The notes: a model not told the origin generated them from the letters alone. DNA of 64,000 nt from Candidatus Moranbacteria bacterium UBA2282 (GCA_002345745.1 DDWQ01000005.1:3707-67706), one strand, 5' to 3'; positions 83 through 39,095 are shown, counted from the stretch's first letter. Numbers and translations are program-made.

Positions 83-3000
83 ATGCACAAAACAATCAAA
101 AACATAGGTGTCATAATTTTCATTGCTATCTTCGCCATTAGTCCCTTGCAAATTAATTTGCAAGCTCTTTCCAAAAATGTTGTAGTGGGTGAGACTTTGC
201 AATTAGAAGAATTATATATCAGCGAAAACACAACTTGGAACAATGATACCAATCTATCAAATTATGGAAACATCTATGTTGATTGGGGTGTAACTTTGAC
301 CATTGAAAAAGGAACACAACTAGCATTTCGTCATTTGCAGATCGATGGCAGCGTTGTTGCCAAAGGTACTAAAGAAGAAAAAATAAAATTAACCGGAATT
401 CCACTAACTTTTGAAGAAGGCGGACTGTATGATCCACGTTGTTCAATGTCGCCAACAGCCACGATTGAATTTAGCGCTCCTGGGGATTATGTGGAAGATC
501 CAGAATCTATTTTTGAATTTGTAGAATTTTCCCAAATGGGTGGAGAATATTCATATGATACAGACAATTGTCCAAGTCTAGGAATGAATAACAGTATCAA
601 AGATATGTTTTTTCCAACAGTCTATGCATCTCCGGTGAATCCAGTTGCTCCAGCTATGACTTTCTATTCAGGCCGAGTGAAAATGAGCAACTGTGATTTC
701 AAAAACAATGCCTATGCGGATATAAAAGTTGAGACGGAATATGGTGAATGGAATTCACAAAGTTATCTGCATATCGAAAACTCCAACTTCCAAAACAACT
801 CTCAAGATACAGCTGTCATAGCTAAAGTTACAAAACCAGATGTATATAGCTCACTTTTTGAAAGCTGTTTCAATGAATGCAAACTCAATTACCCAGATGA
901 CTATATGATTTATGGTCCAATTTGTAATAGCTATTGCACAAATGTCGCAGGCAGTGACCCGAGTTTTCATGACAAATCCAAAGTTCTTTTGAAAAACAAT
1001 TGGTATGGCGATTCAGCTGGTCCAGAAATTGAATCTGTGCCAAATGTGGGTGGGGAAAAACTAATTGGTGACTACACTTCAGAAAGTTGGAGTGCAACAG
1101 AAATTGAAAATTCTGTAGTGCCAGTGACGACTGGTGGAGCATCCAACGTCCTTTTTTTGCCAGGATTGGAGGCGAGTCGGTTGTATAAAGATGGAATAAC
1201 TGAAAATCAACTTTGGGAACCTAATCGCAATGATGATGTGGAGAAATTATTTTTGGATGAAAATGGAAAAAGTCTAAACCAAAATGTGTATACAAAAGAT
1301 ATACTTGATGAGGTAAATGTATCACTATTAGGACAAAAAAATATATATAAATCATTTGAAGCTGATTTGAAAAAGTGGAAAAATGATGACAAAATTATCA
1401 ATGATTATTCGGCTGTGCCATATGACTGGCGATTGTCGCTGGAAGATATTTTAGAGGGAGGCACAATTTCAGATGGAGATCATATCTCATATACTGGAAA
1501 ATCAATCGCACCATATATTATTCGCGAATTAAGAAGATTGGCGAAAACTTCCAAATCTGGCAAAGTGACTATTGTGGCACATTCCAATGGTGGACTGTTG
1601 GCAAAAGCTTTGACTAATAAATTAGGAGTAGAAGCTGAAAGTCTGATTGACAAGATTGTTATGGTGGCTGTGCCACAAGTTGGAACACCGCAAGCAATTG
1701 GTGGACTTTTGCATGGCTATGACCAAGGTTTGCCTGCAGATTGGCTACCTTTGCTTCTGTCGCCTAAAACTGCTCGAACATTGGCAAATAATATGTCGAG
1801 TGCGTATAATTTGCTTCCATCCAATGCATATTTCAATGGCAATGGTAGTGAAACAAGCACACCAGTTATTTCTTTTGAAAATGGATCACTCACGCAACCA
1901 TTCATCAATAAATATGGCAATGAAATTGACACCCCAACCAAATTACATAATTTTCTCTTGGACTCGGAGGGAAAAGTTTCAGTCGATTCAGATAATGTTG
2001 TCAGTCCAAGCACAATCAATGCAAAATTATTAGGCTATGCCAAAGATGTGCATCAATTACTTGATGATAATTGGTCAGTGCCATCATCAATTTCTGTCTA
2101 TCAAATTGCTGGTTTTGGCGAAGAGACACTGGGGAAAATACGATATTGGACAGGCATAGAATGTGTGAAAACATTTCACAGTTGGTGTTTGAAATATCAG
2201 CCAAAATTACAATATTCACCCGAAGTAGTCATTGATGGTGATGGTACAGTGGTAGCACCGAGTGCTTTGGCGATGAGTGCAGATGCAGAAAATGTGAAGA
2301 GGTTTTGGGTAGATTTAAAAAAATACGACACGCTTCTTAATTGGGAAAGAGAGCATGCTGATATTCTTGAAGTTTCAGAATTAAGAAGTTTCATCAAAGA
2401 CAATATTTTAACTCGAAAAAATACGGAATTCCCGCAATTTATTTCAGACTCAATGCCATCCAATAATTCCGAAAAACGCTTACATTACATTTTGCATTCG
2501 CCATTAGCACTTTCCGCACAGGACACATCTGGCAATGAAATTAGTGCTTCAGTTTCGACGATTCCTGGGGCAACATACAGACGCTTTGGCGAAGTGCAAT
2601 TCATCTCTTTGCCAGCTTCTGTGGCACACGCAGTGATGCTCACTGGACTGGCAGAAGGCTCATTCACATTGGAAATGCAGGAAGTGGAGAACGACGCCGT
2701 GGTGGCAGAAACAACTTTTGCCGGTATTCCATCTTCAGACAAAACCAAAGTCACAATAGAGGTGACTGACGGCACAATTGAAAATGCTTCACCACTGGCT
2801 GTGGATTTTGATGGAAACGGTGTAATTGAATTTTCACTAGAACCAAAAGTTGGTGAAACAATCACGCCACTTATTTTAGATCAAACTCCGCCAGAAGCCA
2901 GAATGTTTTTTGACACTCAGACTAATTTAATAAAGGTAGAAGGAATTGATGAAAATCCAACTACAGTGACCTATGCAACATCCATGATATCCAAAAAGAA

Positions 3001-3439
3001 TCAAAATCATAATGAAAGATATGCTAGCAAGGTGACCACAGCTACAGTTGCTGATCAGGCGGGAAATGTCACAATTCTCAAATATACAGAAAAGTTTGTG
3101 AATCATAATCGCAGAGTGGCTGTTGAGCTCAATTCAATCAGCTACAATGGCGTCGTGACCAATCTTTATGATACAATAGCAAAGTACAATTGGACTCTGG
3201 GCAGAAAAGATGAGGTATATAGAATGTTTGCGACCAATTTGCACACAGCCTCTAGTACAGTCGAATCACACTATCGACCAAAACAAAATATCACGATGAT
3301 TATGACGAGACCACAAGAACTAGATGATAATCGTGATGATGACAATGATGCTGATAGGCGAGCAACCAAACAAAAATTGGCAGGTCTAGTTATCCCTGCG
3401 CTGGTGACCAAACAGGGCGTAGTTGAGATTAAGTATTAA
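83..3439 (+). CDS. Large secreted alpha/beta-hydrolase-like surface protein (paralog A); N-terminal signal peptide, AHSNGG nucleophile-elbow motif (lipase/esterase-like)
   Basis: 1118-aa ORF with hydrophobic N-terminal signal (IGVIIFIAIFAISPLQ). Internal motif VTIVAHSNGGLLAKAL fits the G/A-H-S-x-G serine hydrolase elbow. A near-identical paralog lies at 35322..38666. Confidence 0.6.
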   Translation: MHKTIKNIGVIIFIAIFAISPLQINLQALSKNVVVGETLQLEELYISENTTWNNDTNLSNYGNIYVDWGVTLTIEKGTQLAFRHLQIDGSVVAKGTKEEKIKLTGIPLTFEEGGLYDPRCSMSPTATIEFSAPGDYVEDPESIFEFVEFSQMGGEYSYDTDNCPSLGMNNSIKDMFFPTVYASPVNPVAPAMTFYSGRVKMSNCDFKNNAYADIKVETEYGEWNSQSYLHIENSNFQNNSQDTAVIAKVTKPDVYSSLFESCFNECKLNYPDDYMIYGPICNSYCTNVAGSDPSFHDKSKVLLKNNWYGDSAGPEIESVPNVGGEKLIGDYTSESWSATEIENSVVPVTTGGASNVLFLPGLEASRLYKDGITENQLWEPNRNDDVEKLFLDENGKSLNQNVYTKDILDEVNVSLLGQKNIYKSFEADLKKWKNDDKIINDYSAVPYDWRLSLEDILEGGTISDGDHISYTGKSIAPYIIRELRRLAKTSKSGKVTIVAHSNGGLLAKALTNKLGVEAESLIDKIVMVAVPQVGTPQAIGGLLHGYDQGLPADWLPLLLSPKTARTLANNMSSAYNLLPSNAYFNGNGSETSTPVISFENGSLTQPFINKYGNEIDTPTKLHNFLLDSEGKVSVDSDNVVSPSTINAKLLGYAKDVHQLLDDNWSVPSSISVYQIAGFGEETLGKIRYWTGIECVKTFHSWCLKYQPKLQYSPEVVIDGDGTVVAPSALAMSADAENVKRFWVDLKKYDTLLNWEREHADILEVSELRSFIKDNILTRKNTEFPQFISDSMPSNNSEKRLHYILHSPLALSAQDTSGNEISASVSTIPGATYRRFGEVQFISLPASVAHAVMLTGLAEGSFTLEMQEVENDAVVAETTFAGIPSSDKTKVTIEVTDGTIENASPLAVDFDGNGVIEFSLEPKVGETITPLILDQTPPEARMFFDTQTNLIKVEGIDENPTTVTYATSMISKKNQNHNERYASKVTTATVADQAGNVTILKYTEKFVNHNRRVAVELNSISYNGVVTNLYDTIAKYNWTLGRKDEVYRMFATNLHTASSTVESHYRPKQNITMIMTRPQELDDNRDDDNDADRRATKQKLAGLVIPALVTKQGVVEIKY

Positions 3440-3457
3440 TTATTTTATTAAAAAAAT

Positions 3458-3874
3458 ATGACGAAAAAAAGTGTTCTTGTAGTCAACAGCATCGCAATTA
3501 TATTGCTTTTGACATTAGCTTATACGCAAAGCGGAACTAGCTGTTACTCAACTGTTTGGTGTAATAAACTTTGGGATGCTATCAATAGAGTAGGTGAAAT
3601 GTTATTTATTTTTATTCCAGTTTTACTTTTCTCCCTCATCACCTACAAAATGCGTGACGAAGTTTTTCAGGCTTGGTGGAAATTTGCCCGCTGGTTTGTG
3701 CCGGTGATTATGCTGGTTACTCTTCTAATCAACTCTCAAAGCCGAGGTGGTGGAATGGGTATCAGTGGTGCTATATCTAGTAGTTTCAACTTATTTATAA
3801 TTGGCATTTTCTACGCAATTTTTGTCATAACCTCTTTGGTCAAAATAACGCTGGCGTATCGGCGGGTGAAATAA
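3458..3874 (+). CDS. Small polytopic membrane protein (paralog A of 38685..39095); C-terminal 80 aa identical between copies
   Basis: 138-aa ORF, 18 bp downstream of the hydrolase gene, with multiple hydrophobic segments. The 3' ~250 bp is identical to the second copy. Confidence 0.55.
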   Translation: MTKKSVLVVNSIAIILLLTLAYTQSGTSCYSTVWCNKLWDAINRVGEMLFIFIPVLLFSLITYKMRDEVFQAWWKFARWFVPVIMLVTLLINSQSRGGGMGISGAISSSFNLFIIGIFYAIFVITSLVKITLAYRRVK

Positions 3875-3991: not shown

Positions 3992-4065
3992 GTGGGCGTG
4001 CTTAGATTCGAACTGAGGACCTCGTCATTATCAGTGACGCGCTCTAACCAACTGAGCTACACGCC
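3992..4065 (-). tRNA. tRNA-Ile (anticodon GAT)
   Basis: The reverse complement folds as a 74-nt cloverleaf: GGGCGTG acceptor, GCTC/GAGC D-stem, anticodon loop CTGATAA, TTCGAAT T-loop. Confidence 0.85.
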
Positions 4066-4134
4066 CATATTATGTCGTCGCAAAACGACTCCTAATTTAA
4101 AATTATAAATTTAAAATTTAAAATTAATTTCGGG

Positions 4135-4208
4135 TGGACCCTGGGGGATTCGAACTCCCGGCCTCCTCGGTGCAAGCGAGGCGCTCTAGCCAACTGAGCT
4201 AAGGGCCC
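4135..4208 (-). tRNA. tRNA-Ala (anticodon TGC) with G3:U70 identity pair
   Basis: Reverse complement GGGCCCTTAGCTCAG...CTTGCAC...TTCGAAT...AGGGTCCA has anticodon loop CTTGCAC and a G3:U70 wobble in the acceptor stem. One A:C mismatch in the T-stem. Confidence 0.8.
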
Positions 4209-4254
4209 ATTTATTTTTCAACAACTATAATTCATTATACATTAAAATATAATA

Positions 4255-4447: not shown

Positions 4448-4636
4448 ATGGCAAATAAAGTAATAACATTTTTGCAGGAAGCTCGGACTGAATTAACAAG
4501 AGTCAATTGGCCAAGCAAAAAACAAACAATAAATTACACAATCCTTGTCATTGCGATTAGTGTTGTGGGAGCTATTTTTCTCGGAAGTTTAGACTATTTT
4601 TTTAGTTATTTATTAAAAACATTTATTATAAAATAA
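4448..4636 (+). CDS. secE: Preprotein translocase subunit SecE
   Basis: 62-aa protein with a single C-terminal TM helix, located immediately upstream of nusG (conserved secE-nusG-rplK-rplA synteny). Confidence 0.8.
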   Translation: MANKVITFLQEARTELTRVNWPSKKQTINYTILVIAISVVGAIFLGSLDYFFSYLLKTFIIK

Positions 4637-4637
4637 T

Positions 4638-5183
4638 ATGGCCAAACAAACTCAACATCATGGGAGAGCATGGTATGTAATTCACACCTATAGTGGATAT
4701 GAAGACAATGTTGCTCGCAATTTGAAACAAAGAATTGAATCAATGGATATGCAGGATTTGATTTTTGATGTAATGGTTCCAATTGAAAAGAAAATTAAAA
4801 TTAAAACTGGAAAAAGAACAGTTGTGGAAGAGAAAATTTACCCCGGATATGTTCTAGTTGAGATGATGGTAACTGACGCATCTTGGTATGTCGTGCGAAA
4901 CACTCCAAATGTCACAGGTTTCATTGGTCTTGGTACAACACCAACTCCAGTTGATCCAGCTGAGATTGAAATGTTAAAGAAAAGGATGGGTGTGGCTGAA
5001 CCAAAATACAAAATTGATGTTAAAGTCGGTGATTCTATTAAAGTTATCGATGGACCATTCAAGGATTTTGATGCCAAGGTTGATGAGGTTGATGATGCTA
5101 AGGGTAGAGTTAAAGTATTGGTCTCTATTTTTGGAAGAGAAACCCCAGTGGAATTGGATTTCCTACAGATACATAAATTATAA
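4638..5183 (+). CDS. nusG: Transcription termination/antitermination factor NusG
   Basis: 181 aa with an NGN domain start (WYVIHTYSGYE) and a C-terminal KOW-like region (KVGDSIKVIDGPFKDF). Sits in the secE-nusG-rplK synteny. Confidence 0.9.
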   Translation: MAKQTQHHGRAWYVIHTYSGYEDNVARNLKQRIESMDMQDLIFDVMVPIEKKIKIKTGKRTVVEEKIYPGYVLVEMMVTDASWYVVRNTPNVTGFIGLGTTPTPVDPAEIEMLKKRMGVAEPKYKIDVKVGDSIKVIDGPFKDFDAKVDEVDDAKGRVKVLVSIFGRETPVELDFLQIHKL

Positions 5184-5352
5184 GAAATGTAGGTGTGGCG
5201 TCCCGCAAAGAATTCCAAAATAGCTTCTATATTGTGGATAAATTTGTTTGCGAATTCGCCTTACGGCTACGTGCAGTTTTAACTAAAAAAATTAATTAGC
5301 GAATTCGTGCGGGATGCTCATATTTGTAGCTACTCGTACCTCGCAGACAAAT

Positions 5353-5778
5353 ATGGCAAAAAAGATTAAAACAGTTATTAAATTACAAATCGGAGCTGGA
5401 AAAGCAAATCCAGCGCCTCCAGTTGGTCCTGCTTTGGGTCAGCATGGTTTGAACATTCAAGAATTTTGTACAAAGTTCAATGAAGCGACCAAAGCACAAA
5501 TGGGAGATATTGTCCCAGCAGAAATTACAGTATATGAAGATCGAACTTTCAGTTTTGTTTTGAAAACTCCTCCGGCCTCTGATCTTTTGCGAAAAGCAGC
5601 TGGCGTAGAAAAGGGTGCTGGCAATCCGCTAAAAGACAAAGTTGGCACAATTACTGGAGCAAAACTTCAAGAAATTGCAGAACGGAAATTGCCTGACTTG
5701 AATGCTAACGATGTTGATGCGGCAGAAAAAATAATTGCAGGAACTGCACGATCGATGGGAATTAAAATTGAAAATTAA
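5353..5778 (+). CDS. rplK: 50S ribosomal protein L11
   Basis: [32 protein letters not shown] matches the L11 N-terminal signature. The ORF-track start at 5314 is probably too far upstream. Confidence 0.9.
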
Positions 5779-5856
5779 GAGTGAAGTTATTTAATTAAAT
5801 TTAATTTTGTGGGAGATGTTGTATGTATTATACATCGCTTGAACCACTAAAATATT

Positions 5857-6528
5857 ATGAAGCACGGAAAAAAGTATAGAGCTATGTCTGAAAAAATTGA
5901 TAAAAACAAAGAATATACCTTGGAAGAGGCGGTTAAATTAATGAAAGAAAGCACAACCGCTAAATTTGACGAGTCAGTTGAAATTCACATTAAAACAAAC
6001 GTTGATCCAAAAAAAGGTGATCAACAAGTGCGTGGAACAGCAGCTCTTCCATATGGAAGCGGGAAAACAAAGCGTGTGGCTGTTATAACCTCAACTAGCG
6101 CAGCCGAAGCAAAAGCTGCTGGAGCAGACATTGTTGGCGGAGAAGAATTAGTTGAAACATTTGCTAAAAAAATTGAATTTGATGTTTTGGTTGCAACACC
6201 GGAAATGATGCCAAAATTAGCTAAGGCTGCTAAAATCTTGGGGCCAAAAGGTTTAATGCCAAATCCAAAAACTGAGACAGTAACGACAAAAATCAAAGAA
6301 ACTGTAGAAGCTTTGAAAAAGGGTCGCGCAGCATTTAAAAATGATGCTTCCGCTGTTATTCATCAAGCTGTAGGAAAAGTTTCCTTTGATGATGCGAAAC
6401 TTATTGAAAATATTAAATTTTTTATTGACACTGTAGGAAAAGTTAAGCCTGCAGCCTTCAAGGGAAAACTTATTGCTAGCATCACCATTTGTTCAACAAT
6501 GGGCAAAGGAATTCGAATTAGTTTTTAG
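5857..6528 (+). CDS. rplA: 50S ribosomal protein L1
   Basis: 223 aa with L1 motifs (FDESVEIHIKTNVDPKKGDQQVRG, LGPKGLMPNPKTETVT). Confidence 0.9.
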   Translation: MKHGKKYRAMSEKIDKNKEYTLEEAVKLMKESTTAKFDESVEIHIKTNVDPKKGDQQVRGTAALPYGSGKTKRVAVITSTSAAEAKAAGADIVGGEELVETFAKKIEFDVLVATPEMMPKLAKAAKILGPKGLMPNPKTETVTTKIKETVEALKKGRAAFKNDASAVIHQAVGKVSFDDAKLIENIKFFIDTVGKVKPAAFKGKLIASITICSTMGKGIRISF

Positions 6529-8953: not shown

Positions 8954-9424
8954 ATGATTTCAATGATCTGTGCAATTGGGAAAAATCGTGAGATAGGCTT
9001 TCAAAATAAGCTACTTTGGGATATTCCAGAAGATATGGCACATTTCAAGACAATAACTTCTGGTCACACGGTAATTATGGGTGACAAAACCTATCAGTCA
9101 ATCGGTCGTCCATTGCCAAATCGAAAAAATATTGTTGTGACACTCAACAAAGACTTGCAAGCACCTGGGTGCGAAGTGCGATTTGATTTGGAGAAAGTTT
9201 TGCAAGAATATAAAAAAAGCGCAGAAGAGGTTTTTGTGATCGGCGGTGGAATGATTTATAAACTATCATTGCCAATGGCAGATAAATTATATTTGACTTT
9301 AGTGGACGATGCACCAGAAGCAGATACCTTTTTCCCAGATTATTCAGAATTCAAACAGACTATAAAAGAAGAAGAAATTGATAATGGAAAATATAAATTT
9401 AAGTTTGTAGAATTAATTAGATAG
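8954..9424 (+). CDS. folA: Dihydrofolate reductase
   Basis: DHFR N-terminal signature MISMICAIGKNREIGFQNKLLWDIPEDMAHFK. Located directly after thyA. Confidence 0.85.
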   Translation: MISMICAIGKNREIGFQNKLLWDIPEDMAHFKTITSGHTVIMGDKTYQSIGRPLPNRKNIVVTLNKDLQAPGCEVRFDLEKVLQEYKKSAEEVFVIGGGMIYKLSLPMADKLYLTLVDDAPEADTFFPDYSEFKQTIKEEEIDNGKYKFKFVELIR

Positions 9425-9430
9425 AAAAAT

Positions 9431-10099
9431 ATGAAATACGAAGTAGAAATTAAAAGTTTGTTGCAAACAGAAGAGCGAGCGCAGAAGTTGCGGGATAAAT
9501 TAGCCGAGCAAGGCATTCAGTTGGCGAATAAATACAATCAGCTCAATCATTATTTTTTGAGTAATGGTGACTTTGCAAAATTGGAAGAAAAAATCTTGCC
9601 ATTGTTTGATGCAGGAAAGCAAGAGAAATTGAAAAGAATTTTGGAAGATGGAAAAAATCATTCAATTCGCACGCGAGAAATGAATGGCGAAGTATTTTTT
9701 GTAGTGAAGGCTTCAGTTGATGACACAACTTCAGAGAACGGAATTCAGCGGATGGAATTTGAAGAAAAAGTGGAGGTTTCTATGGATGATCTTGGGAAGA
9801 TTCTGGAAGAAGCTGGCTTTGACTATCAAGCTAAATGGTCAAGAAATCGGGAAGAATATGAAAAAGATGATTTCTACATAACCATTGATAAAAATGCCGG
9901 ATATGGATATCTATCAGAATTTGAAATTGAAACTGAAGATGAAAATCAACTATCTGATGCCAAACAAAGAATCTTGGATTTTATGCAAGAGCTTGAACTA
10001 GTTGAACTTTCCCAAGAAAGACTTGGAAGAATGTTTGAATTTTATAATGAAAATTGGAAAGATTATTATGGCACAGAAAGTGTTTTTAATGTAGAATAA
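9431..10099 (+). CDS. Hypothetical protein, possible CYTH (triphosphate tunnel) domain
   Basis: N-terminal EVEIK, RTRE, EFEEK and C-terminal EFEIETE glutamate-rich strand motifs are reminiscent of the CYTH fold. Weak. Confidence 0.4.
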   Translation: MKYEVEIKSLLQTEERAQKLRDKLAEQGIQLANKYNQLNHYFLSNGDFAKLEEKILPLFDAGKQEKLKRILEDGKNHSIRTREMNGEVFFVVKASVDDTTSENGIQRMEFEEKVEVSMDDLGKILEEAGFDYQAKWSRNREEYEKDDFYITIDKNAGYGYLSEFEIETEDENQLSDAKQRILDFMQELELVELSQERLGRMFEFYNENWKDYYGTESVFNVE

Positions 10100-10128
10100 T
10101 ATAAAAATGAAGTGTGTGATGTAAAAAT

Positions 10129-10458
10129 ATGAATTTTGAAGAATATCAAAAGGAAGTGAATAAACATGCTGTGTATCCTATAGTAGGTAAGAAATTTGTG
10201 TATCCTGTTTTGGGCTTGGTTGGTGAAGCGGGTGAGGTGGCAGAAAAAATCAAGAAAATTTTGCGGGACAACGATGGTAATGTTTCAGAGGAACAGAAAA
10301 ATGAGATAAAAAAAGAACTTGGTGATGTATTGTGGTATCTATCGCAATTAGCAATTGACTTGGAAATATCGTTAGATGATGTTGCAAGTTGTAATATTGA
10401 AAAAATAAAAAGTCGAAGGGAACGTGGCGTGGTAAAGGGAATCGGTGATAATAGGTAA
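10129..10458 (+). CDS. MazG-like nucleotide pyrophosphohydrolase
   Basis: 109 aa with paired EXXE-type motifs (GLVGEAGEVAEKI, ELGDVLWYLSQLA) typical of the all-alpha NTP pyrophosphatase family. Confidence 0.7.
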   Translation: MNFEEYQKEVNKHAVYPIVGKKFVYPVLGLVGEAGEVAEKIKKILRDNDGNVSEEQKNEIKKELGDVLWYLSQLAIDLEISLDDVASCNIEKIKSRRERGVVKGIGDNR

Positions 10459-10472
10459 AAATATAAAATATT

Positions 10473-11942
10473 ATGACAAAATACATCCCAGTAATTGGCA
10501 TGGAAATCCATGTTGAGCTAAAGACAAAATCAAAAATGTTTTGCAGTTGCAAAAATGGTTTGGGTATGGAAACTGAACCCAACGTGAACATCTGTCCTGT
10601 CTGCACGGCACAACCCGGAACCTTGCCAGTGGCAAATGCACAGGCGATTGAATTTGTGCAAAAAGCAGGACTAGCGCTAAATTGCAAGATTGCGGAAAAT
10701 TCTAAATTTGATCGCAAAAACTATTTTTATCCAGATATCCCGAAAGGCTATCAGATTTCGCAATATGATCAGCCATTGTGTGGTTTGGGTCACATTCAAA
10801 TTGAAGATCGGGAAATTGGTATCACCAGAATTCATATGGAGGAGGATACTGGCAAGCTAGTGCATCCGAAGGGCGCTGATCATTCCTTGGTTGACTTTAA
10901 TCGTGCTGGTGTGCCTTTGATGGAATTGGTGACTGAGCCTGATATTGAAACGGGCAAGGAAGCGAGATTGTTTTGCCAGAAGTTGCAACAAATTTTTCGC
11001 TATTTGGAAATTTCTGATGCAGATATGGAAAAGGGGCATATGCGTTGCGAGGTGAACATCTCTTTGCACAAAGAGGGTGAAGAAAAATTGAGTGGCACCA
11101 AAGCGGAAATAAAAAATCTGAATTCTTTTCGTGTGGTGGAAAAAGCGGTTGACTATGAAATTTTGCGACAAACAGAGATTCTAGAAAAAGGTGAAAAAGT
11201 TATTCAAGAAACAATGGGTTGGGATGAAGCGCGTGGCGTAACTGTGACACAACGAAAAAAAGAATCCGCCCATGACTATCGCTATTTTCCAGAACCAGAT
11301 ATTCCGCCAATGCGATTTGCTGTTGAATATGTGGAAAATTTACGGCGACATTTGCCAGAATTGCCAGATGCTAAAGCGAAGAGGTTTGTTGAGGAATATA
11401 ATCTATCACCAGAGAATGTCAGCTTGATAACTAGCGATAGGGACTTAGCAAAATATTTTGAACAAGTTGTTTCGGAACTGCAGGAAAAAAAGCAGAGTGG
11501 GGAAGTAAAAGCAGAAGAAGCAAAGCTTATTAAATTAGCTGCAAACTATTTCGTTAGTGAACTGCAGAAACATTTAGTGAAGAATAATCAACAAATTTCT
11601 GATGTTAAGATTAGTGCAGAAAATTATGCCGAGCTGATTGGGCTTTTAGCAGACGGCATTATAAATTCCAGTGCCGGTCAAATTGTCTTAGAGGAAATGT
11701 ATGCCACCGGTGGTGACCCTTCGCAAATTATTGAAGCGAAAAATTTAGCGCAAATGGATGACTCTGGGGAACTTGAAAAAATTGTAGCAGAAGTTTTGGC
11801 GAAAAATCAAAAATCAGTGGATGATTTCAAGGCTGGTAAGCAAAATGCACTGCAATTTTTGATGGGGCAAGTTATGTCGGCATCGAAGGGGAAAGCGAAT
11901 CCTAAAATGGTAATAGATTCATTGAAAAATAAATTAGGGTAA
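10473..11942 (+). CDS. gatB: Asp-tRNA(Asn)/Glu-tRNA(Gln) amidotransferase subunit B
   Basis: 489 aa. N-terminal IPVIGMEIHVELKT...FCSC and C-terminal GatB/YqeY domain. Confidence 0.9.
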   Translation: MTKYIPVIGMEIHVELKTKSKMFCSCKNGLGMETEPNVNICPVCTAQPGTLPVANAQAIEFVQKAGLALNCKIAENSKFDRKNYFYPDIPKGYQISQYDQPLCGLGHIQIEDREIGITRIHMEEDTGKLVHPKGADHSLVDFNRAGVPLMELVTEPDIETGKEARLFCQKLQQIFRYLEISDADMEKGHMRCEVNISLHKEGEEKLSGTKAEIKNLNSFRVVEKAVDYEILRQTEILEKGEKVIQETMGWDEARGVTVTQRKKESAHDYRYFPEPDIPPMRFAVEYVENLRRHLPELPDAKAKRFVEEYNLSPENVSLITSDRDLAKYFEQVVSELQEKKQSGEVKAEEAKLIKLAANYFVSELQKHLVKNNQQISDVKISAENYAELIGLLADGIINSSAGQIVLEEMYATGGDPSQIIEAKNLAQMDDSGELEKIVAEVLAKNQKSVDDFKAGKQNALQFLMGQVMSASKGKANPKMVIDSLKNKLG

Positions 11943-25366: not shown

Positions 25367-25415
25367 TTTTTTCCCGTCAAAATATTTGATGATTTGGTGA
25401 TTTGGATAATTTGAG

Positions 25416-25924: not shown

Positions 25925-25958
25925 CGTAATTCGCTTAAATTAGAATAATTCGCGTTAT

Positions 25959-26342
25959 ATGGCACGATACGAACATATCAAAATTTTCCAAGTAGCCTAT
26001 ATTTTGACAGTGGAGATTCATAAAGTTGCATCCAAATTCGGCAAAAAACACCGATATACTTTGGGTGAGAAAATAAAAAATCTTTGCAGTGATATGTTGG
26101 ATATGATCGTGGTGGCAAATGCAGCGACGGAAAAACAAGAATCTTTGAAAATGATTGACGCGCAACTGGAAAAAATCAGAATTCAATTGCGCATCGTGTA
26201 TGATCTGCGAATAATCAGTGCCGGACTGCTAGGCATTCTCAACAAACGCATTGAGGAAGTTGGTCGGCAACTTGGTGGGTGGCAGAAGTGGGCGGAAGAG
26301 GAAGCTTGTCCGTCCGCTCCTGCCAGAGTCTCTGTGGACTAA
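25959..26342 (+). CDS. avd: DGR accessory variability determinant (Avd)-like four-helix-bundle protein
   Basis: 127-aa basic helical protein. IFQVAYILTVEIHKVASKFGKKHRYTLGEKIKNLCSDMLDMIVVANAA resembles the PF05635/Avd family. Lies between VR and TR. Confidence 0.75.
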   Translation: MARYEHIKIFQVAYILTVEIHKVASKFGKKHRYTLGEKIKNLCSDMLDMIVVANAATEKQESLKMIDAQLEKIRIQLRIVYDLRIISAGLLGILNKRIEEVGRQLGGWQKWAEEEACPSAPARVSVD

Positions 26343-26469
26343 GGTCTCAGAGAGAGCGCAGAAGACGGGAATTACAGTCCGACTCACTGTTTTTGTAAAA
26401 CAGTATATTCGACAAAAGGCTTACACATTTTTTGTGATAGCTTCCGAATTTTGAAAGTAGACGGACAAT

Positions 26470-26589
26470 GGCTTTCAGAGCAGCACAATAACAATAATGC
26501 TCGGATAGCCGGCAATAACGCTTGCTCGAACTTCAATAATAATAATGTCAACAATGGCAATCGGTTCAGAGCGGTGTTTCGCCCCTAAG
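26470..26589 (+). repeat. DGR template repeat (TR), non-coding, rich in AAT/AAC
   Basis: Direct repeat of the VR. Contains adenines at all 17 variable positions. Ends 14 bp from the RT stop codon. Confidence 0.9.
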
Positions 26590-26603
26590 CAATTCCTGAA
26601 AAA

Positions 26604-27833
26604 TTAATTCTCATCCCACATAAAGTAGGCGTAGTTTTTGTCAGCCGGACGAAGATAGATTTTGAGAATGCCAAAATGTTTTTCATAGAGAGTTTTTCGG
26701 AGGCCAAAGCAATTGGCGTGCTTGAAAAATCCATAGGTGGAATTTAGGGAGGAAAAAATATGTTGAAAATCTTCCAAAAATTCCGGAAAAACTGAAAAGC
26801 GGTCATAAAAAATTTTGTCGCAGGCGCAAAGATGGTCATTTGGATCGAGCGAATTTAAAATTTTTTGGTTAAACTGCCAGAGAGTATTCTTTAGCTTTTT
26901 GACTGTTCCTCGGCGGATAAGTATGTGATCCGGTTTGGTGATATATCCGCAGAAATTGATGCCTTTGTCACATTGTTGCAAAACTTGTTTTTTTGGATGA
27001 AGTTTGAGTAGTAATTTTTTTTCAACAAACTGAGAAATTTCATCTCGCCAAAAAAGCAATTGTGTCTTGGAAGGATGAAGAAGCAGAAGATCGTCCATAT
27101 AGCGAAAGCTATGGGGGCATTTCAAAGTATGTTTGACAAACTGGTCTAGTTCATTGAGATACACATTAGCGAAGAATTGACTGGTCAGGTTGCCAATCGG
27201 CAATCCTTGGTGGCTGGGATTTCCAAAGAGCGATTTGTGCCTTGGAATTGAGCGTAATAATTTGATGTCGCCTTTAACACAATAGTTCAAAGTCGGATTT
27301 TGAAAAACAATTTTTTCCGTTAGCCACAAAATGTCCGGATTTCTGAGATGTTTTTGGATAATTGCAAATAGAATGCGCTTATCGATGCTCACAAAAAAAC
27401 TGCGAATGTCAACTTGCAGGTAGAATAATTTTGGGTCAATCGATTTTTTCAGATAGGCGATGGCTTTGTGTGCACCTTTTTCTTTTCGACAGGCATAGGA
27501 ATGAAAAACGAATTTTTTCTCCCAAATCGGTTCCAGATAGCTCACCAAAAGATGATGCACGATGCGGTCGCGAAAATCAGCCGCCCAGACTTCGCGTAGC
27601 TTTGGGTCAATAATAGCAAAACAGGTGTGTTTCCCAGGCTCATATGATTTATTTTTTAACTCGCGTTCTAATCGCAGCAGTTCCACTTCAAAATTCAATT
27701 CGAATTTAGCGGCATTGGTGGTGTGGCGTTTGGATTTCCGGCATTGATAATATGCTCGTAGAAGATTTTTAAAAGAGAAAATATCTCTCTCAGGCTGTGT
27801 CAATTTTTGTGCTTGAAAAAGTTTTTGTTTCAT
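26604..27833 (-). CDS. DGR reverse transcriptase
   Basis: 409 aa with FHSYACRKEKGAHKAI (DGR RT motif 2), QGLPIGNLTSQFFANVYL (IGxxxSQ motif 4) and YMDDLLLL (YxDD catalytic motif). Confidence 0.9.
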   Translation of the reverse strand: MKQKLFQAQKLTQPERDIFSFKNLLRAYYQCRKSKRHTTNAAKFELNFEVELLRLERELKNKSYEPGKHTCFAIIDPKLREVWAADFRDRIVHHLLVSYLEPIWEKKFVFHSYACRKEKGAHKAIAYLKKSIDPKLFYLQVDIRSFFVSIDKRILFAIIQKHLRNPDILWLTEKIVFQNPTLNYCVKGDIKLLRSIPRHKSLFGNPSHQGLPIGNLTSQFFANVYLNELDQFVKHTLKCPHSFRYMDDLLLLHPSKTQLLFWRDEISQFVEKKLLLKLHPKKQVLQQCDKGINFCGYITKPDHILIRRGTVKKLKNTLWQFNQKILNSLDPNDHLCACDKIFYDRFSVFPEFLEDFQHIFSSLNSTYGFFKHANCFGLRKTLYEKHFGILKIYLRPADKNYAYFMWDEN

Positions 27834-27897: not shown

Positions 27898-28299
27898 ATG
27901 ATTAGTGACGCTCGTTGGCGTGAGCGATTTGGAGATTATAAAAAAGCAGTCAGGCGTATGCAGGACGCTCTGAAAAAAGAATCATTTAGCGAGCTGGAGA
28001 AAGACGGTGTAATTCAAAGGTTTGAATTTACTTTTGAACTTGCGTGGAAAACATTAAAAGATTATTTGGAGGATCAAAGTTTCATCGATATTTCCAGTCC
28101 GAAAAAGGCCATCCGTAAAGCGTTCGAAAGTGGAACAATTGCAGATGGCAATATTTGGATTGAAATGCAAGAGGACAGAAATAGAATGTCGCATATATAT
28201 AATCAAAGCGAAAGTGAAAAGATATTTAAAAATATTAAAGATAAATATATGAAAGCTCTAAATGACTTAGTCATTGCGCTGGAAAAAGAACTCCAATGA
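27898..28299 (+). CDS. HEPN-domain protein of the nucleotidyltransferase-substrate-binding (HI0074-like) family; toxin-like
   Basis: 133 aa with the conserved R-x4-H motif (RNRMSHIY) near the C-terminus. 4-bp overlap with the downstream MNT gene. Confidence 0.7.
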   Translation: MISDARWRERFGDYKKAVRRMQDALKKESFSELEKDGVIQRFEFTFELAWKTLKDYLEDQSFIDISSPKKAIRKAFESGTIADGNIWIEMQEDRNRMSHIYNQSESEKIFKNIKDKYMKALNDLVIALEKELQ

Positions 28300-28598
28300 A
28301 ATTCGGACTGACTGAAAAAGAAATAATGCTGTTAGTAGGCGTGTTTGAAAAAACTCGCAATATAGAGAAAGTTTTTATTTATGGTTCACGCGTCAAAGGT
28401 AATTACAAAAAAACCTCCGATATTGATTTGGTAGTTTGTTTTGCTTATAATGTCAAAAAAAGCGTTGCTATGCTAAAATCAGAATTGGAAGATTTACCCA
28501 TAATTTATAGTATTGATATAATTGATGAAGAAGAAATTGAAGTTGGAAAATTCAAAAATGAATATGCTAGAACAAGGCAGGTTTTTTATATGAAGTAG
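28296..28598 (+). CDS. Minimal nucleotidyltransferase (MNT); antitoxin-like partner
   Basis: GSRVKGNYKKTSDIDLVV matches the GSx9-13Dx(D/E) polymerase-beta-type NTase motif. Confidence 0.75.
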   Translation: MKFGLTEKEIMLLVGVFEKTRNIEKVFIYGSRVKGNYKKTSDIDLVVCFAYNVKKSVAMLKSELEDLPIIYSIDIIDEEEIEVGKFKNEYARTRQVFYMK

Positions 28599-28612
28599 TG
28601 TCTTAAAATAAA

Positions 28613-34497: not shown

Positions 34498-34730
34498 ACG
34501 ATTAGTTTTTAAAATCATCATCATCTGACCGTGGGTAATTCCGTGGTTTTTTGCTTTACGGAGGTGAATTTTAGGAGTAAAATAAAGTTATGCACAGGGT
34601 CTTGACTTGAAAAATAAGCATAATAGTGTTATTATATCAGTATAGATAATCATCTTTTTTAGAATACAAATAATGGCAATGAGGAAATTCAGTTATTAAA
34701 CACAAAAACAACCTAGCAAACTAATCATAT

Positions 34731-35197
34731 ATGAAAAAAACAATCCAAAACCAAATAATTATTTACGAAGGAGACAACGGTGAATCTCGTATAGAAGTAA
34801 AATTTGAAGGTGAAACAGTTTGGCTTTCGCAATCACAATTGGTTGAACTTTTTGGATCAAGTAAGGCTAATATAAGCGAGCATATTAAAAATATCTATAC
34901 AGAAAAAGAATTGGCACTGGAAGCAACTGTTCGGAATTTCCGAACAGTTAAAAAAGAGGGTAATAGAAAGGTTTCTAGGGATGTTGAGCATTATAATCTT
35001 GATATGATTATTTCACTATTTCAAAATCAACCGGAAGAAAAATTTTGGATGATGCTGGCAAGGTAAGTCATGAGAAAGCTACGGAAAAAGCTAGTTTGGA
35101 GTATCGCAAGTACAAAGCAAGGAATTTGAGCGAGGTTGAGAAATCTTATTTGGAAACTATAAAAGGTATAGAAAAAAAGATTGTCAAAAAATCATAG
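34731..35197 (+). pseudogene. RhuM-family (virulence/DOC-like) gene remnant with internal deletion and frameshift
   Basis: N-terminal 95 aa (IIIYEGDNGESRIEVKFEGETVWLSQSQLVELFGSSKANISEHIKNIY...YNLDMIIS) matches the RhuM N-terminal domain. The reading frame terminates at 35066. A second frame from about 35003 encodes the RhuM C-terminal tail (ILDDAGKVSHEKATEKASLEYRKYKARNLSEVEKSYLETIKGIEKKIVKKS). Confidence 0.65.
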
Positions 35198-35321
35198 TCC
35201 AGCTTTGAAAATTCCGCACTAGTATTTGAGTAATTGGGGTGTGGATGATATTATAAGGGTAGCAATAATTCATGAATTTATTCAGTAATAAATTCAGTAA
35301 TTAATTTATTAAAACAAAAAA

Positions 35322-38300
35322 ATGCACAAAACAATCAAAAACATAGGTGTCATAATTTTCATTGCTATCTTCGCCATTAGTCCCTTGCAAATTAATTTGC
35401 AAGCTCTTTCCAAAAATGTTGTAGTGGGTGAGACTTTGCAATTAGAAGAATTATATATCAGCGAAAACACAACTTGGAACAATGATACTAATCTATCAAA
35501 TTATGGAAACATCTATGTAGATTGGGGTGTGACTTTGACCATTGAAAAAGGAACGCAATTAGCATTTCGTCATTTGCAGATCGATGGCAACGTTGTTGCC
35601 AAAGGCACTAAAGAAGAAAAAATAAAATTAACCGGAATTCCACTAACTTTTGAAGATGATGGATCATATGACCCGCGTTGTTTTATGTCGCCAACGGCTA
35701 CGATTGAATTTAGCGCTCCTGGGGATTATATTGAAGATCCAGAATCTATTTTTGAATTTGTAGAATTTTCCCAAATGGGTGGAGAATATTCATATGATAC
35801 AGACGATTGTCCAAGTCTAGGAATGAATAACAGCATCAAAGATATGTTTTTTCCAACAGCCTATGCATCTCCTGTGAATCCAGTTGCTCCAGCTATGACC
35901 ATCTATTCAGGCCGAGTGAAAATGAGCAACTGTGATTTCAAAAACAATGCCTATGCGGATATAAAAGTTGAGATGGAATATGGTGAATGGAATTCACAAA
36001 GTTATCTGCATATCGAAAACTCCAACTTCCAAAACAACTCTCAAGATACAGCTGTCATAGCTAAAGTTACAAAACCAGATGTATATAGCTCACTTTTTGA
36101 AAACTGTTTTAATGAATGCAAACTCAATTATCCAGATGACTATATGATTTATGGTCCGATTTGTAATAACTATTGCACAAATGTCGCAGGCAGTGACCCG
36201 AGTTTTCATGACAAATCCAAAGTTCTTTTGAAAAACAATTGGTATGGCGATCCAGCTGGTCCAGAAATTGAATCCGCGCCAAATGTGGGTGGAGAAAAAC
36301 TAATTGGTGACTATACTTCAGAAAGTTGGAGCGCCACAGAAATTGAAAATTCTGTAGTGCCGGTGACGACTGGTGGAGCATCTAATGTTCTTTTCTTGCC
36401 AGGGTTGGAGGCGAGTCGGTTGTATAAGGATGGAATAACTGAAAATCAACTTTGGGAACCTAATCGCAATGATGATGTAGAAAAATTATTTTTGGATGCC
36501 AATGGGAAAAGTCTAAATCAAAATGTGTATACAAAGGATGTTCTTGATGAGGTAAATGTATCGCTATTAGGACAAAAAAATATCTATAAATCATTTGAAG
36601 CTGATTTGAAAAAGTGGAAAAATGATGACAAAATTATTAACGATTATTCAGCTATTCCGTATGATTGGCGATTGTCCCTAGAAGATATTCTAGAGGGAGG
36701 CACAATTTCAGATGGAGATCATATCTCATATACTGGAAAATCAATCGCGCCATATATTATTCGCGAGTTAAGAAGATTGGCGGAAACTTCCAAATCTGGC
36801 AAAGTGACTATTGTGGCACATTCCAATGGTGGGTTAGTGGCAAAAGCTTTGACTAACAAATTGGGAGCAGAGGCTGAAAGTCTGATTGACAAGATTGTTA
36901 TGGTGGCCGTGCCACAAGTTGGAACACCGCAAGCAATCGGTGGACTTTTACATGGCTATGACCAAGGCTTGCCAGCAGATTGGCTACCTTTGCTTTTGTC
37001 TCCTAAAACTGCTCGAACATTGGCAAATAATATGCCGAGTGCGTATAATCTGCTCCCATCAAATGCATATTTCAATGGCAATGGCAGTGAAACAAGCACA
37101 CCAGTTATTTCTTTTGAAAATGGAACACTCACACAGTCATTCATCAATAAATATGGCAATGAAATTAACACCCCAACCAAATTACATAATTTTCTCTTGG
37201 ACTCGGAGGGAAAAGTTTCAGTCGATTCAGATAATGTTGTCAGTCCAAGCACAATTAATGCAAAATTGTTAGGCTATGCCAAAGATGTGCATCAATTACT
37301 TGATGACAATTGGTCAGTGCCATCATCAATTTCTGTCTATCAAATTGCTGGCTTTGGGGAGGAGACACTGGGAAAAATACGATATTGGACAGGCATAGAA
37401 TGTGTGAAAACATTTCACAGTTGGTGTTTGGAGTATCAGCCAAAATTACAATATTCACCCGAAGTAGTCATTGATGGTGATGGCACTGTGGTGGCACCGA
37501 GTGCGTTGGCGATGAGCACAGATGCAGAAAATGTGAAGAGGTATTGGGTGGATTTGGATGATTACAACGATGTCTTTACAATGAAAAGAGAACACGCAGA
37601 TATTTTAGAAGTTCCATGGTTGCGAAATTTTATTAAGGATAACATCTTAACTCAGTCATCAACATCTTTTCCTCAATTTATTTCCGATTCAAAACCATCT
37701 AATAAATCCGAAAAACGTTTGCATTACATTTTGCATTCGCCATTAGCACTTTCCGCGCAGGACACATCTGGCAATGAAATTAGTGCTTCAGTTTCGACGA
37801 TTCCTGGAGCGAATTACAAACGCTTTGGCGAAGTGCAATTCATCTCTTTGCCAGCTTCTGTGACACACACAGTGATGCTCACTGGACTGGCAGAAGGCTC
37901 ATTCACATTGGAAATGCAGGAAGTGGAGAATGACGCCGTGGTGGCAGAAACAACATTTGCCGGTATTCCATCTTCAGACAAAACCAAAGTCACAATGGAG
38001 GTGACTGATGGCACAATTGAGAATGCTTTGCCACTAGCTGTGGATTATGATGGAAACGGTGTAATTGAATTTTCACTAGAACCAAAAGTTGGTGAAACAA
38101 TCACACCACCCGCTTTGGATCAAACTCCGCCAGAAGCCAGAATGTTTTTTGACACCAAAACAAATTTAATAGTAGTGGAAGGCGTGGATGAAAATCCAAC
38201 GACAGTGGTATATTCCACAGCACCAAAATTTAAAAAGAATCAGAAGCAAAAAGACAAAATAACCACAGCCACAATCACTGACCAAGTAGGAAATGTCACT

Positions 38301-38666
38301 GTGCTAACATATATCGAAAAAGCTCCAAATTATGAACGAAGAATTGCCGTTGAAGTGAAGTCTGTGAGTTACAATGGCGTTGTGACCAATCTTTATGATA
38401 CAATAGCAAAGTACAATTGGACTCTGGGCAGAAAAGATGAGATATACAGAATGTTTGCGACTCATCTTCGCACATCTTCTAGCACGATTGAATCACATTA
38501 TCGACCAAAACAAAATATCACGATGATTATGACGAGACTGCAAGAGCTAGATGACAATCGTGATGATGACAATGATGCTGATAGGCGAGCAATCAAGCAA
38601 AAATTAGCAGGTTTAGTTATTCCTGCACTGGTAACTAAACAAGGTGTGGTTGAGATTAAATATTAA
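35322..38666 (+). CDS. Large secreted alpha/beta-hydrolase-like surface protein (paralog B)
   Basis: 1114-aa ORF, about nine in ten residues identical to 83..3439 by eye. Same AHSNGG motif. Divergence is concentrated near the C-terminal third. Confidence 0.6.
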   Translation: MHKTIKNIGVIIFIAIFAISPLQINLQALSKNVVVGETLQLEELYISENTTWNNDTNLSNYGNIYVDWGVTLTIEKGTQLAFRHLQIDGNVVAKGTKEEKIKLTGIPLTFEDDGSYDPRCFMSPTATIEFSAPGDYIEDPESIFEFVEFSQMGGEYSYDTDDCPSLGMNNSIKDMFFPTAYASPVNPVAPAMTIYSGRVKMSNCDFKNNAYADIKVEMEYGEWNSQSYLHIENSNFQNNSQDTAVIAKVTKPDVYSSLFENCFNECKLNYPDDYMIYGPICNNYCTNVAGSDPSFHDKSKVLLKNNWYGDPAGPEIESAPNVGGEKLIGDYTSESWSATEIENSVVPVTTGGASNVLFLPGLEASRLYKDGITENQLWEPNRNDDVEKLFLDANGKSLNQNVYTKDVLDEVNVSLLGQKNIYKSFEADLKKWKNDDKIINDYSAIPYDWRLSLEDILEGGTISDGDHISYTGKSIAPYIIRELRRLAETSKSGKVTIVAHSNGGLVAKALTNKLGAEAESLIDKIVMVAVPQVGTPQAIGGLLHGYDQGLPADWLPLLLSPKTARTLANNMPSAYNLLPSNAYFNGNGSETSTPVISFENGTLTQSFINKYGNEINTPTKLHNFLLDSEGKVSVDSDNVVSPSTINAKLLGYAKDVHQLLDDNWSVPSSISVYQIAGFGEETLGKIRYWTGIECVKTFHSWCLEYQPKLQYSPEVVIDGDGTVVAPSALAMSTDAENVKRYWVDLDDYNDVFTMKREHADILEVPWLRNFIKDNILTQSSTSFPQFISDSKPSNKSEKRLHYILHSPLALSAQDTSGNEISASVSTIPGANYKRFGEVQFISLPASVTHTVMLTGLAEGSFTLEMQEVENDAVVAETTFAGIPSSDKTKVTMEVTDGTIENALPLAVDYDGNGVIEFSLEPKVGETITPPALDQTPPEARMFFDTKTNLIVVEGVDENPTTVVYSTAPKFKKNQKQKDKITTATITDQVGNVTVLTYIEKAPNYERRIAVEVKSVSYNGVVTNLYDTIAKYNWTLGRKDEIYRMFATHLRTSSSTIESHYRPKQNITMIMTRLQELDDNRDDDNDADRRAIKQKLAGLVIPALVTKQGVVEIKY

Positions 38667-38684
38667 TTATTTTTTATTAAAAAT

Positions 38685-39095
38685 ATGAGCAAAAAAAGTA
38701 TCTTAGTCGTTTCATCTGTGTACGTTGTTTGTTTCGTTGCGGGTTTCTTAGCTAGTTTATTGTGCGAATCTAGTAAATGCAGAATATATGATGATAGTGT
38801 TTTAGGTTGGATATTACTTAATTTTATTTTTCTTATTCCAGTTTTCCTTTTCTCCCTCATCACCTACAAAATGCGTGACGAAGTTTTTCAGGCTTGGTGG
38901 AAATTTGCCCGCTGGTTTGTGCCGGTGATTATGCTGGTTACTCTTCTAATCAACTCTCAAAGCCGAGGTGGTGGAATGGGTATCAGTGGTGCTATATCTA
39001 GTAGTTTCAACTTATTTATAATTGGCATTTTCTACGCAATTTTTGTCATAACCTCTTTGGTCAAAATAACGCTGGCGTATCGGCGGGTGAAATAA
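38685..39095 (+). CDS. Small polytopic membrane protein (paralog B)
   Basis: 136 aa. N-terminal half diverged from 3458..3874; C-terminal 80 aa identical. Confidence 0.55.
   Translation: MSKKSILVVSSVYVVCFVAGFLASLLCESSKCRIYDDSVLGWILLNFIFLIPVFLFSLITYKMRDEVFQAWWKFARWFVPVIMLVTLLINSQSRGGGMGISGAISSSFNLFIIGIFYAIFVITSLVKITLAYRRVK

Follow-up and report, generated by a model that had tools for sequence, protein, structure and literature searches.

Mosaic identity between two copies of a cassette for an LCAT-like hydrolase and a small membrane protein in a Candidatus Moranbacteria genome

Patescibacteria are reported to lack lipid synthesis and to be enriched in lysolipids (PMC11665869, PMC12455944, PMC8080830), and a recent review states that no mechanism of lipid uptake or breakdown has been identified in them (PMC11665869). 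The nearest described case in terms of proposed role is Vamp_34_196 of Vampirococcus lugosii, a predicted secreted phospholipase of a lipid-auxotrophic episymbiont (PMC8080830); the likeness is one of proposed role. In terms of fold, the nearest enzymes are LCAT and LPLA2 (PLA2G15), which belong to Pfam family PF02450. Here we describe a two-gene cassette, encoding an LCAT/LPLA2-like large protein and a small membrane protein, that is present twice in a 64,000-nucleotide stretch of the genome of Candidatus Moranbacteria bacterium UBA2282 (GCA_002345745.1, DDWQ01000005.1:3707-67706). This whole stretch is called the window, and positions are counted from its first letter. The large protein shares with LCAT and LPLA2 the alpha/beta-hydrolase fold, the Pfam match and an invariant Ser-Asp-His set, and by analogy the same chemistry would be expected, namely hydrolysis or transfer of phospholipid sn-acyl chains. 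Unlike these enzymes, it is bacterial (Patescibacteria), has three times their length, carries its catalytic domain between a beta-helix and three beta-sandwich domains, shows about 15% sequence identity to the solved structures and is encoded alongside a putative dedicated membrane partner. The two copies are probably old paralogous cassettes that exchange short tracts by gene conversion and encode a surface lipase with its membrane partner. In the literature searched on LCAT-like enzymes in Patescibacteria, no paper turned up that describes the enzyme family, the cassette, the partner gene or the concerted evolution of the copies.

Two collinear cassettes with mosaic identity

Comparison of the window with itself (blastn), together with the open reading frames (ORFs), bears out the duplication proposed in an earlier sequence-only reading: the two-gene unit occurs as two collinear copies in direct orientation, A and B, 35 kb apart (Table 1). 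The copies align at 91.2% identity across 3407 bp (73-3472 = 35312-38699) and at 98.6% identity towards the 3′ end (3598-3874 = 38820-39095), and no third copy was found within the window by the same search. An 18-nt spacer separates the large gene from the small gene in both. Homology runs from position 73 to the copy A stop codon at 3874 (39095 in copy B), so that the predicted end at the stop of the second gene is exact, and the flanks beyond 73-3874 are unrelated between the copies. The start of homology had been assigned to a ribosome-binding site; the leader found there is A-rich and has no recognisable Shine-Dalgarno motif.

Identity per 100 bp in a global alignment of A and B ranges from 100% down to 43%, with low-identity patches at about 2293-2492, 2893-3200 and 3393-3600. 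The longest identical run, 249 bp at the 3′ end of the small gene, exceeds every run in 20,000 shuffles of the variable sites (shuffle maximum 147; P <= 5e-5), and a row of 82 identical third-codon positions has a permutation P of about 1.5e-4. Counted per 40 codons, third-position differences clump strongly, with a variance/mean of 5.9. Divergence is not uniform along the cassette, and the mosaic with an identical 3′ end of about 250 bp that the sequence-only reading described is present at silent sites as well. That reading had also noted diverged N-terminal halves of the downstream membrane proteins, which are indeed only 39% identical, and had placed clustered divergence of the large proteins in their C-terminal third. 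This last point needs correction: divergence instead lies in two discrete patches, at amino acids (aa) 736-800 and 941-1020, in addition to the N-terminal half of the small gene, and over its final 100 aa the large protein of A is 93% identical to that of B.

Proportions of silent (pS) and non-silent (pN) differences between A and B were calculated in 40-codon windows. The value of pS is 0.00 at codons 1-40 and 201-240 and in the final 66 small-gene codons, lies at 0.1-0.3 across most of the large gene, and peaks at 0.83 (codons 758-797) and 0.55 (codons 958-1031), with 0.81 in the stretch that covers the junction of the two genes and the small-gene N-terminal half. As an outgroup, the closest ortholog (locus L001, from a Moraniibacteriota metagenome-assembled genome, MAG; 82% protein identity) gives fairly even pS of roughly 0.5 (0.3-0.7), including 0.36-0.63 inside the block where A and B are identical. 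Because of this silent divergence from L001, the identity of the 3′ block does not reflect codon-level constraint. In the three patches, pS equals or exceeds the L001 level, which dates them at least as far back as the split from L001.

Histories of individual segments are incongruent: paralogs group by genome in the converted segments and by type elsewhere, both in the halves of the small protein and in segments of the large protein examined with quartets. Outside the patches, large-protein segments are 93-97% identical between A and B (97% in the catalytic domain) versus 56-87% to the homologs P0002-P0007, and quartet counts in these background segments favour A+B (10:2:1, 12:2:0 and 6:0:0). 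At aa 941-1020, quartets switch to A+P0002 and B+P0006 (1:5:1, a small count), with identities of 78% for A-P0002 and 74% for B-P0006. Around the predicted catalytic histidine, aa 736-800 of copy B are 82-83% identical to P0002, P0004 and P0008, closer than to copy A. For the small protein, A and B agree completely (100%) over the C-terminal half, versus at most 88% for the other proteins among 120 homologs. The copy B protein has an N-terminal half ('type B') that is 82% identical to P0156, from another genome, and that of the copy A protein ('type A') is 65% identical to P0127. These N-terminal halves fall into several discrete classes common to different genomes. In several pairs of small proteins, the N-terminal half is better conserved than the otherwise well-conserved C-terminal half; conservation of the two halves thus disagrees across pairs, and the halves have discordant histories.

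A comparable pattern is found in an unrelated genome from another metagenome, where two large and three small genes are packed into 9 kb of locus L013. All three small genes carry the same mismatch-free 243-bp C-terminal half but fall into two types by their N-terminal half, and two otherwise very different large genes share a 1367-bp, 100% identical 3′ block (4597-5963 and 9205-10571). The corresponding C-terminal half in the window differs from that of L013 at 53/243 bases. The structure of this locus was assembled independently from two samples in the ENA. The identical 3′ blocks of L013 indicate that within-genome homogenisation of the 3′ part of the cassette recurs in the family. Neighbours in L013 and L004-L007 are cell-envelope genes, encoding glycosyltransferases, an LPG_synthase_TM protein and PMT_2 proteins.

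The population, whose source sample is 3300040971 of the Joint Genome Institute (JGI), is also represented in a second public assembly by JGI contig Ga0242423_000295. On this contig are a copy A variant (P0001), the two small proteins and a copy B without any change. It differs from the window at 28 positions in 13,439 bp around copy A and at 0 positions in 23,345 bp around copy B, so that the two assemblies are identical over 36.8 kb bar those 28 bases. All 28 fall within one tract (Table 1), which ends within the 177-bp and 128-bp identical runs that anchor it on either side. Copy A equals copy B throughout 73-863 in the JGI contig and does not in the window. Such a tract would arise either from a conversion that is polymorphic in the population or from an assembler changing paths across repeats no shorter than k.

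Table 1 Positions of the cassette copies, their identical and divergent segments, protein features and upstream hairpins (window coordinates unless given as aa)
Feature	Position	Strand	Comment
Cassette copy A	73..3874	+	10-nt A-rich leader, large gene, 18-nt spacer, small gene
Large gene A	83..3439	+	1118 aa
Small gene A	3458..3874	+	138 aa
Cassette copy B	35312..39095	+	Layout as copy A
Large gene B	35322..38666	+	1114 aa; AHSNGG, DGDGT and REHAD motifs all kept
Small gene B	38685..39095	+	136 aa
249-bp DNA-identical block, small gene 3′ end	3626..3874 = 38847..39095	+	Longest run; ends exactly at the stop codon
177-bp identical block, leader and signal peptide region	73..249 = 35312..35488	+	Starts 10 nt before the ATG
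128-bp identical run	736-863		Third longest
Tract differing between assemblies	250..735	+	486 bp; all 28 differences are the copy B base in the JGI contig
Divergent patch 1	2288..2482 (B: 37527-37721)	+	aa 736-800, around the predicted catalytic His; A-B identity 71%
Divergent patch 2	2903..3142 (B: about 38142-38369)	+	aa 941-1020, penultimate beta-sandwich; 12-nt indel; A-B identity 63%
Divergent patch 3	3458..3625 (B: 38685-38846)	+	Small gene N-terminal half
Signal peptide-like segment	aa 3-29		Sole hydrophobic segment, N-terminal, basic residues before it
Beta-helix region	about aa 40-340		Predicted, beta-rich
LCAT/LPLA2-like hydrolase	about aa 352-790; copy A 1136..2452	+	Alpha/beta-hydrolase domain
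Ser501 (AHSNGG), putative nucleophile	codon 1583-1585	+	Invariant, 65 homologs
Asp720	codon 2240-2242	+	Invariant, 65 homologs
His758	codon 2354-2356	+	Invariant, 65 homologs
Beta-sandwich domains	about aa 795-1118		Predicted, out to the C-terminus
C-terminal domain	aa 1019-1118; copy A 3137..3436	+	Extreme C-terminus in every family member
Terminator-like hairpin and T-run	26..51	+	Upstream of copy A; 15-mer at 37-51, 32 nt away
Terminator-like hairpin and T-run	34527..34552	+	30 nt past the smc stop; 770 nt before copy B

A predicted LCAT-like enzyme and its candidate membrane partner

Both large proteins match Pfam LCAT (PF02450) at 54.4 and 55.1 bits (cut-off 21) over aa 442-733, with an E value of 1.6e-14 for copy A; weaker Pfam matches are to DUF7379, PGAP1 and beta-helix families. 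An AlphaFold model built with 65 homologs as input has a mean predicted local distance difference test score (pLDDT) of 84.8. In Foldseek comparisons of this predicted model with the PDB, the best matches are LPLA2 structures 4x90, 4x97 and 4x92 (E 2e-12 to 5e-12; target TM-score 0.64-0.69), and LCAT 6mvd is matched at E 1.5e-9. Sequence searches of the PDB with the family profile and with the N-terminal, catalytic and C-terminal regions gave nothing significant, so identification of the catalytic domain among solved structures is through fold comparison only. The S501, D720 and H758 residues are present in both copies and, judging from position and invariance, would form the catalytic triad. 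The large protein is probably exported via Sec, given its single N-terminal hydrophobic segment. The description of a secreted AHSNGG hydrolase-like protein is in keeping with the Pfam match, the predicted LPLA2/LCAT fold and that segment, and the structures suggested for it, a beta-helix in the N-terminal third and an alpha/beta-hydrolase core, are both modelled.

The small protein has four hydrophobic helices and basic residues at the N-terminus, in the 63-78 loop and at the C-terminus. The predicted topology is N-in/C-in, which would leave a Cys-pair loop, carried by the N-terminal half of the copy A protein, and a Gly-rich loop, located in the conserved C-terminal half, on the outside. The best-conserved part consists of the SLITYKMRDEVF.AWW.FARW stretch on the predicted cytoplasmic face and helices 3 and 4. 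By its predicted helices the small protein is an undescribed four-helix membrane family. A resemblance to lipase chaperones, raised as a question in the sequence-only reading, found no family or fold match.

The large protein has >1100 relatives, and those with a named source come from Moranbacteria, Paceibacterota, Yonathbacteria, Minisyncoccota or the 'Patescibacteria group'. A scan of a genome collection with the large protein gave two loci only, its peptide patterns being too specific. The large gene stands directly upstream of the small gene twice in the window, in L001 and on the contig of P0006. In the 80 metagenome loci found via the small protein, a same-strand large gene likewise lies directly upstream wherever the DNA suffices, with the exception of tandem and a few solo small genes. 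This tight, phylum-wide linkage to the large gene is the reason for reading the small protein as the membrane partner of the enzyme, which we infer from gene order. Two solo small genes (L018 6001-6411 and L021 3447-3839) carry a third type of N-terminal half and have neither a large gene nor a C-terminal fragment upstream; the upstream neighbour is an alanyl-tRNA-synthetase-like gene in one and encodes a LysM-rich protein in the other.

Some relatives contain modular arrays in which a large gene and a small gene are followed by repeated units of an approximately 90-aa fragment plus a small gene (L040/41, L066, L068, L079/81, L084, L086 and L052); the window holds no such fragment array. Every array fragment matches the last ~100 residues of the large protein and lacks the catalytic domain, and breakpoints recur at about aa 1019-1031, the start of the last domain. 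In these arrays, L081 1-4300 among them, a full cassette precedes one or two modules of a fragment and a divergent small gene, and some of the fragments have their own ATG. An exhaustive search with the 100-aa C-terminal domain returned 151 clusters, always with the domain at the C-terminus and many of them short; the longer clusters checked are LCAT-type proteins or fragments of them, except for one spurious Cna_B repeat protein. Since all genuine clusters checked are LCAT-type, the domain is family-specific and travels with the small gene, not with other cargo. A role as a general sorting tag was considered and rejected on the same grounds.

Origin of the mosaic and proposed role of the cassette

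The evolutionary reading in which paralogous cassettes swap short tracts and keep three old type-specific patches is well supported. Gene conversion between paralogs, which the mosaic pattern had first suggested, is borne out by the silent-site mosaic, the segment-wise phylogenetic switches and the recurrence in L013, and the B-like tract in the JGI copy A would fit it as well. Two old copies would have kept diverged patches at aa 736-800, at aa 941-1020 and in the first two transmembrane helices and extracellular loop of the partner, and the remainder would have been homogenised repeatedly by short-tract gene conversion, leaving tracts without silent difference; the exchange, described as ongoing in the sequence-only reading, may be so in vivo. 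At the cell surface, the enzyme may deacylate or transacylate phospholipids and so provide the cell with lysolipids and fatty acids, in a phylum for which lipid synthesis is reported to be absent. The partner might dock the enzyme or handle its products, and the two copies might differ in specificity. Fold, invariant triad, export signal and the reported lipid auxotrophy together point to a host-lipid-harvesting surface phospholipase/transacylase.

Several observations weigh against this combined explanation. The ratio pN/pS is <1 in all windows, patches included, and so gives no sign of diversifying selection. Across 34 large/small pairs, distances in the small-protein N-terminal half correlate only weakly with those in every large-protein segment (rho <= 0.19; at most 0.40 among close relatives), in a mirror-tree comparison of distance matrices that is confounded by linkage and recombination. 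The small gene occurs alone in some genomes, and the small protein may also act without an adjacent enzyme gene. Neither small protein in the window nor any of 64 family members belongs to a Pfam or NCBIfam family, and Foldseek against the PDB gave no match for the small protein at E <= 0.001, just non-significant helical bundles. The 177- and 128-bp anchors on either side of the 250-735 tract match typical assembler k-mers in length, making an in silico path switch possible, and the divergent patches could be imports from other strains instead of relics of an old duplication.

This last point underlies an alternative with a real, if minority, chance of being correct: a recent duplication followed by import of foreign segments through homologous recombination with other Moranbacteria alleles, in which conversion played a minor part. 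Copy B is closest to P0006 at aa 941-1020, aa 736-800 of copy A are an outlier to every sampled homolog, and the genome that supplies the P0156 match to the type B N-terminal half has a large protein that is only about 70% identical. The discordant histories of the small-protein halves are seen family-wide, relatives carry the cassette in unrelated neighbourhoods without conserved synteny, and both copies in the window lie beside restriction-modification or defence genes in flexible regions, all of which suits import. What import does not readily accommodate is the combination of background pS of 0.1-0.3 with zero-divergence tracts, which requires at least two ages of A-B exchange. Homology also stops exactly at the ORF limits, which is unusual for a recent segmental duplication, and the B-like tract in the JGI assembly is an exchange between A and B, not an import. 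Import and conversion are not mutually exclusive.

With respect to function, the main rival to lipid harvesting is an effector-immunity pair, in which the secreted lipase would hit the membranes of neighbours, the small protein would protect the producer, and copies and arrays would be specificity variants. The immediately downstream partner gene, the fragment plus small gene arrays of relatives with their recurrent breakpoint, the discrete classes of small-protein N-terminal half and the extra solo small genes are features that such a pair could have. We nevertheless consider it unlikely, as Pfam reveals no T5-, T6- or T7-type (type V, VI or VII secretion) delivery domain and the signal is of the Sec type only; the catalytic domain is central and conserved, and orphan fragments lack it. 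The best-conserved part of the partner lies in the membrane and on the predicted cytoplasmic side, which is not where a secreted enzyme would be met. PADLOC assigns no family to the small protein, and there are no PADLOC or Pfam immunity-family matches.

Assembly artefact, that is, merging or mis-phasing of the paralogs by metagenome assemblers such that some identical tracts, and the one on which the assemblies disagree, arose in silico, is very unlikely as a general account of the mosaic, and the second assembly bears on it in both directions. The two assemblies differ in a single 486-bp tract only, which lies between identical anchors whose lengths, 177 and 128 bp, come near those of the largest k-mers of common assemblers. 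In each assembly, however, copies A and B lie 35 kb from one another within flanks that are unique, and all other variable sites are the same in the two, the 249-bp block included. The same architecture of identical 3′ blocks is present in independent assemblies from other samples (L004-L007 and L013-L016), and, as the divergent patches show, no simple collapse of the copies took place. Purifying selection alone has virtually no chance of explaining the identical 3′ block, even though conservation in the family is highest in the C-terminal half of the small protein, as A and B agree at 82/82 third positions where the nearest ortholog differs at 36-63% of silent sites and L013 at 53 bases, and this sole cause is contradicted by the silent-site data.

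A broader proposal can be put forward as quite unlikely on present evidence: that the cassette is a host-lipid acquisition module of Patescibacteria, with specificity modules shuffled among paralogs and orphan modules by segmental gene conversion. If this were true, the enzyme would strip acyl chains or make lysolipids from host membranes, and the partner would take up or re-acylate the products. The specificity modules would be the His-adjacent region, the penultimate beta-sandwich and the first two helices and extracellular loop of the partner, and the whole would amount to a system by which ultra-small episymbionts diversify a surface enzyme through cassettes.

Genomic surroundings and comparison with known systems

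Copy A is located between a restriction enzyme and methylase pair and the genes for tRNA-Ile, tRNA-Ala, secE and nusG. The neighbours of copy A include a restriction enzyme gene and a gene fusing LexA-like, S24 peptidase and methylase domains (L003 7018-9734). The tRNA-Ile(GAT) and tRNA-Ala(TGC) genes are adjacent on the minus strand (3992-4209), a pair that is usual in the spacers of rRNA operons; the window contains no rRNA. Copy B is situated in a flexible block of roughly 9 kb between smc and rpsP (34560-43700). This block also holds a truncated RhuM-family gene with strong matches to PADLOC PDC-S05 (34731-35066), an unassigned 148-aa ORF (39127-39573) and type III restriction-modification genes mod (39619-41376) and res (41366-43678).

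A motif shared upstream of both copies had been noted in the sequence-only reading, and it is present at both sites: the 15-mer ATTCCGTGGTTTTTT occurs exactly at 37-51 and 34538-34552, with a one-mismatch copy in an ORF at 47319. At each upstream position, the 15-mer makes up the 3′ arm of a terminator-like hairpin of 9 pairs, T-run included, and it lies outside the duplicated unit. As a terminator-like arm at non-equivalent distances from the two cassettes, the 15-mer was rejected as a cassette boundary or shared regulatory site. A strong promoter-like TTGTCA-17-TATAAT sequence (11/12 matches) is found about 85 nt upstream of the copy A hairpin with no gene between (L003 9831-9975; window about 1-57), which could mark a short RNA or, for copy A, a terminating leader. 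The promoter-like site of copy B is a different one, at 35226-35254, without a hairpin. Rfam searches of the window and the copy A leader returned three tRNAs only.

Elsewhere in the window, a diversity-generating retroelement occupies 22963-27833. Its variable repeat (25246-25366), located at the 3′ end of an 800-aa ORF that Pfam does not match, has 17 mismatches to the template repeat (26469-26589), all at template adenines. Neighbouring genes encode a reverse transcriptase (26604-27833, minus strand), a bAvd accessory protein (25959-26342) and a PD-(D/E)XK protein (25541-25924), and a 43-bp tandem repeat (3.1 copies, 95% matches; 25407-25540) lies between the target gene and the PD-(D/E)XK gene. 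A HepT-like and nucleotidyltransferase (MNT-type) gene pair adjoins the retroelement (27898-28600; Pfam matches precomputed for the JGI contig). Self-comparison also revealed a 32-bp near-perfect palindrome (94% self-complementary) at 58053-58084.

The mechanism of gene conversion is ordinary; less so is the pairing of an uncharacterised, Patescibacteria-wide LCAT-like enzyme with a four-helix partner, with reshuffled variants. A phylum-wide LCAT/LPLA2-like enzyme with a putative dedicated membrane partner is a concrete and testable candidate for the lipid-acquisition step. Mosaic paralogs, partner 'types' and orphan modules suggest that streamlined genomes keep and reshuffle specificity variants, which bears on host range and genome dynamics. 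The cassette pair also shows how paralog exchange and assembler phasing get confused in metagenome-assembled genomes.

Among known systems, the LipA-Lif operons of Pseudomonas and Burkholderia also place a secreted lipase beside a membrane-anchored helper. Lif has about 340 aa, one anchor helix and a large periplasmic domain, in contrast to the small protein with its 136-138 aa, four helices and no Pfam or fold match. Polymorphic toxin loci, such as Rhs, contact-dependent inhibition (CDI) and the Tle-Tli pairs of type VI secretion systems (T6SS), share with the cassette the order of enzyme then small partner gene, the occurrence in multiple copies, fragment arrays and mosaic recombination. Unlike in those loci, the large protein has a single N-terminal signal-like segment and no contact-dependent delivery domain in Pfam, the travelling fragment is a conserved, non-catalytic C-terminal domain and not a variable C-terminal toxin, and the partner is a predicted polytopic membrane protein with a conserved motif on its cytoplasmic face. 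Short-tract, non-reciprocal exchange between paralogs that yields mosaics of a surface protein is shared with Mycoplasma genitalium mgpB/MgPar, Neisseria pilE/pilS and Borrelia vlsE, and relatives of the cassette have partial copies as these systems do. The cassette differs from them in that neither high-frequency switching nor pressure from immunity or phages is evident and that the window has no silent-cassette array; both of its copies are full-length and apparently expressible.

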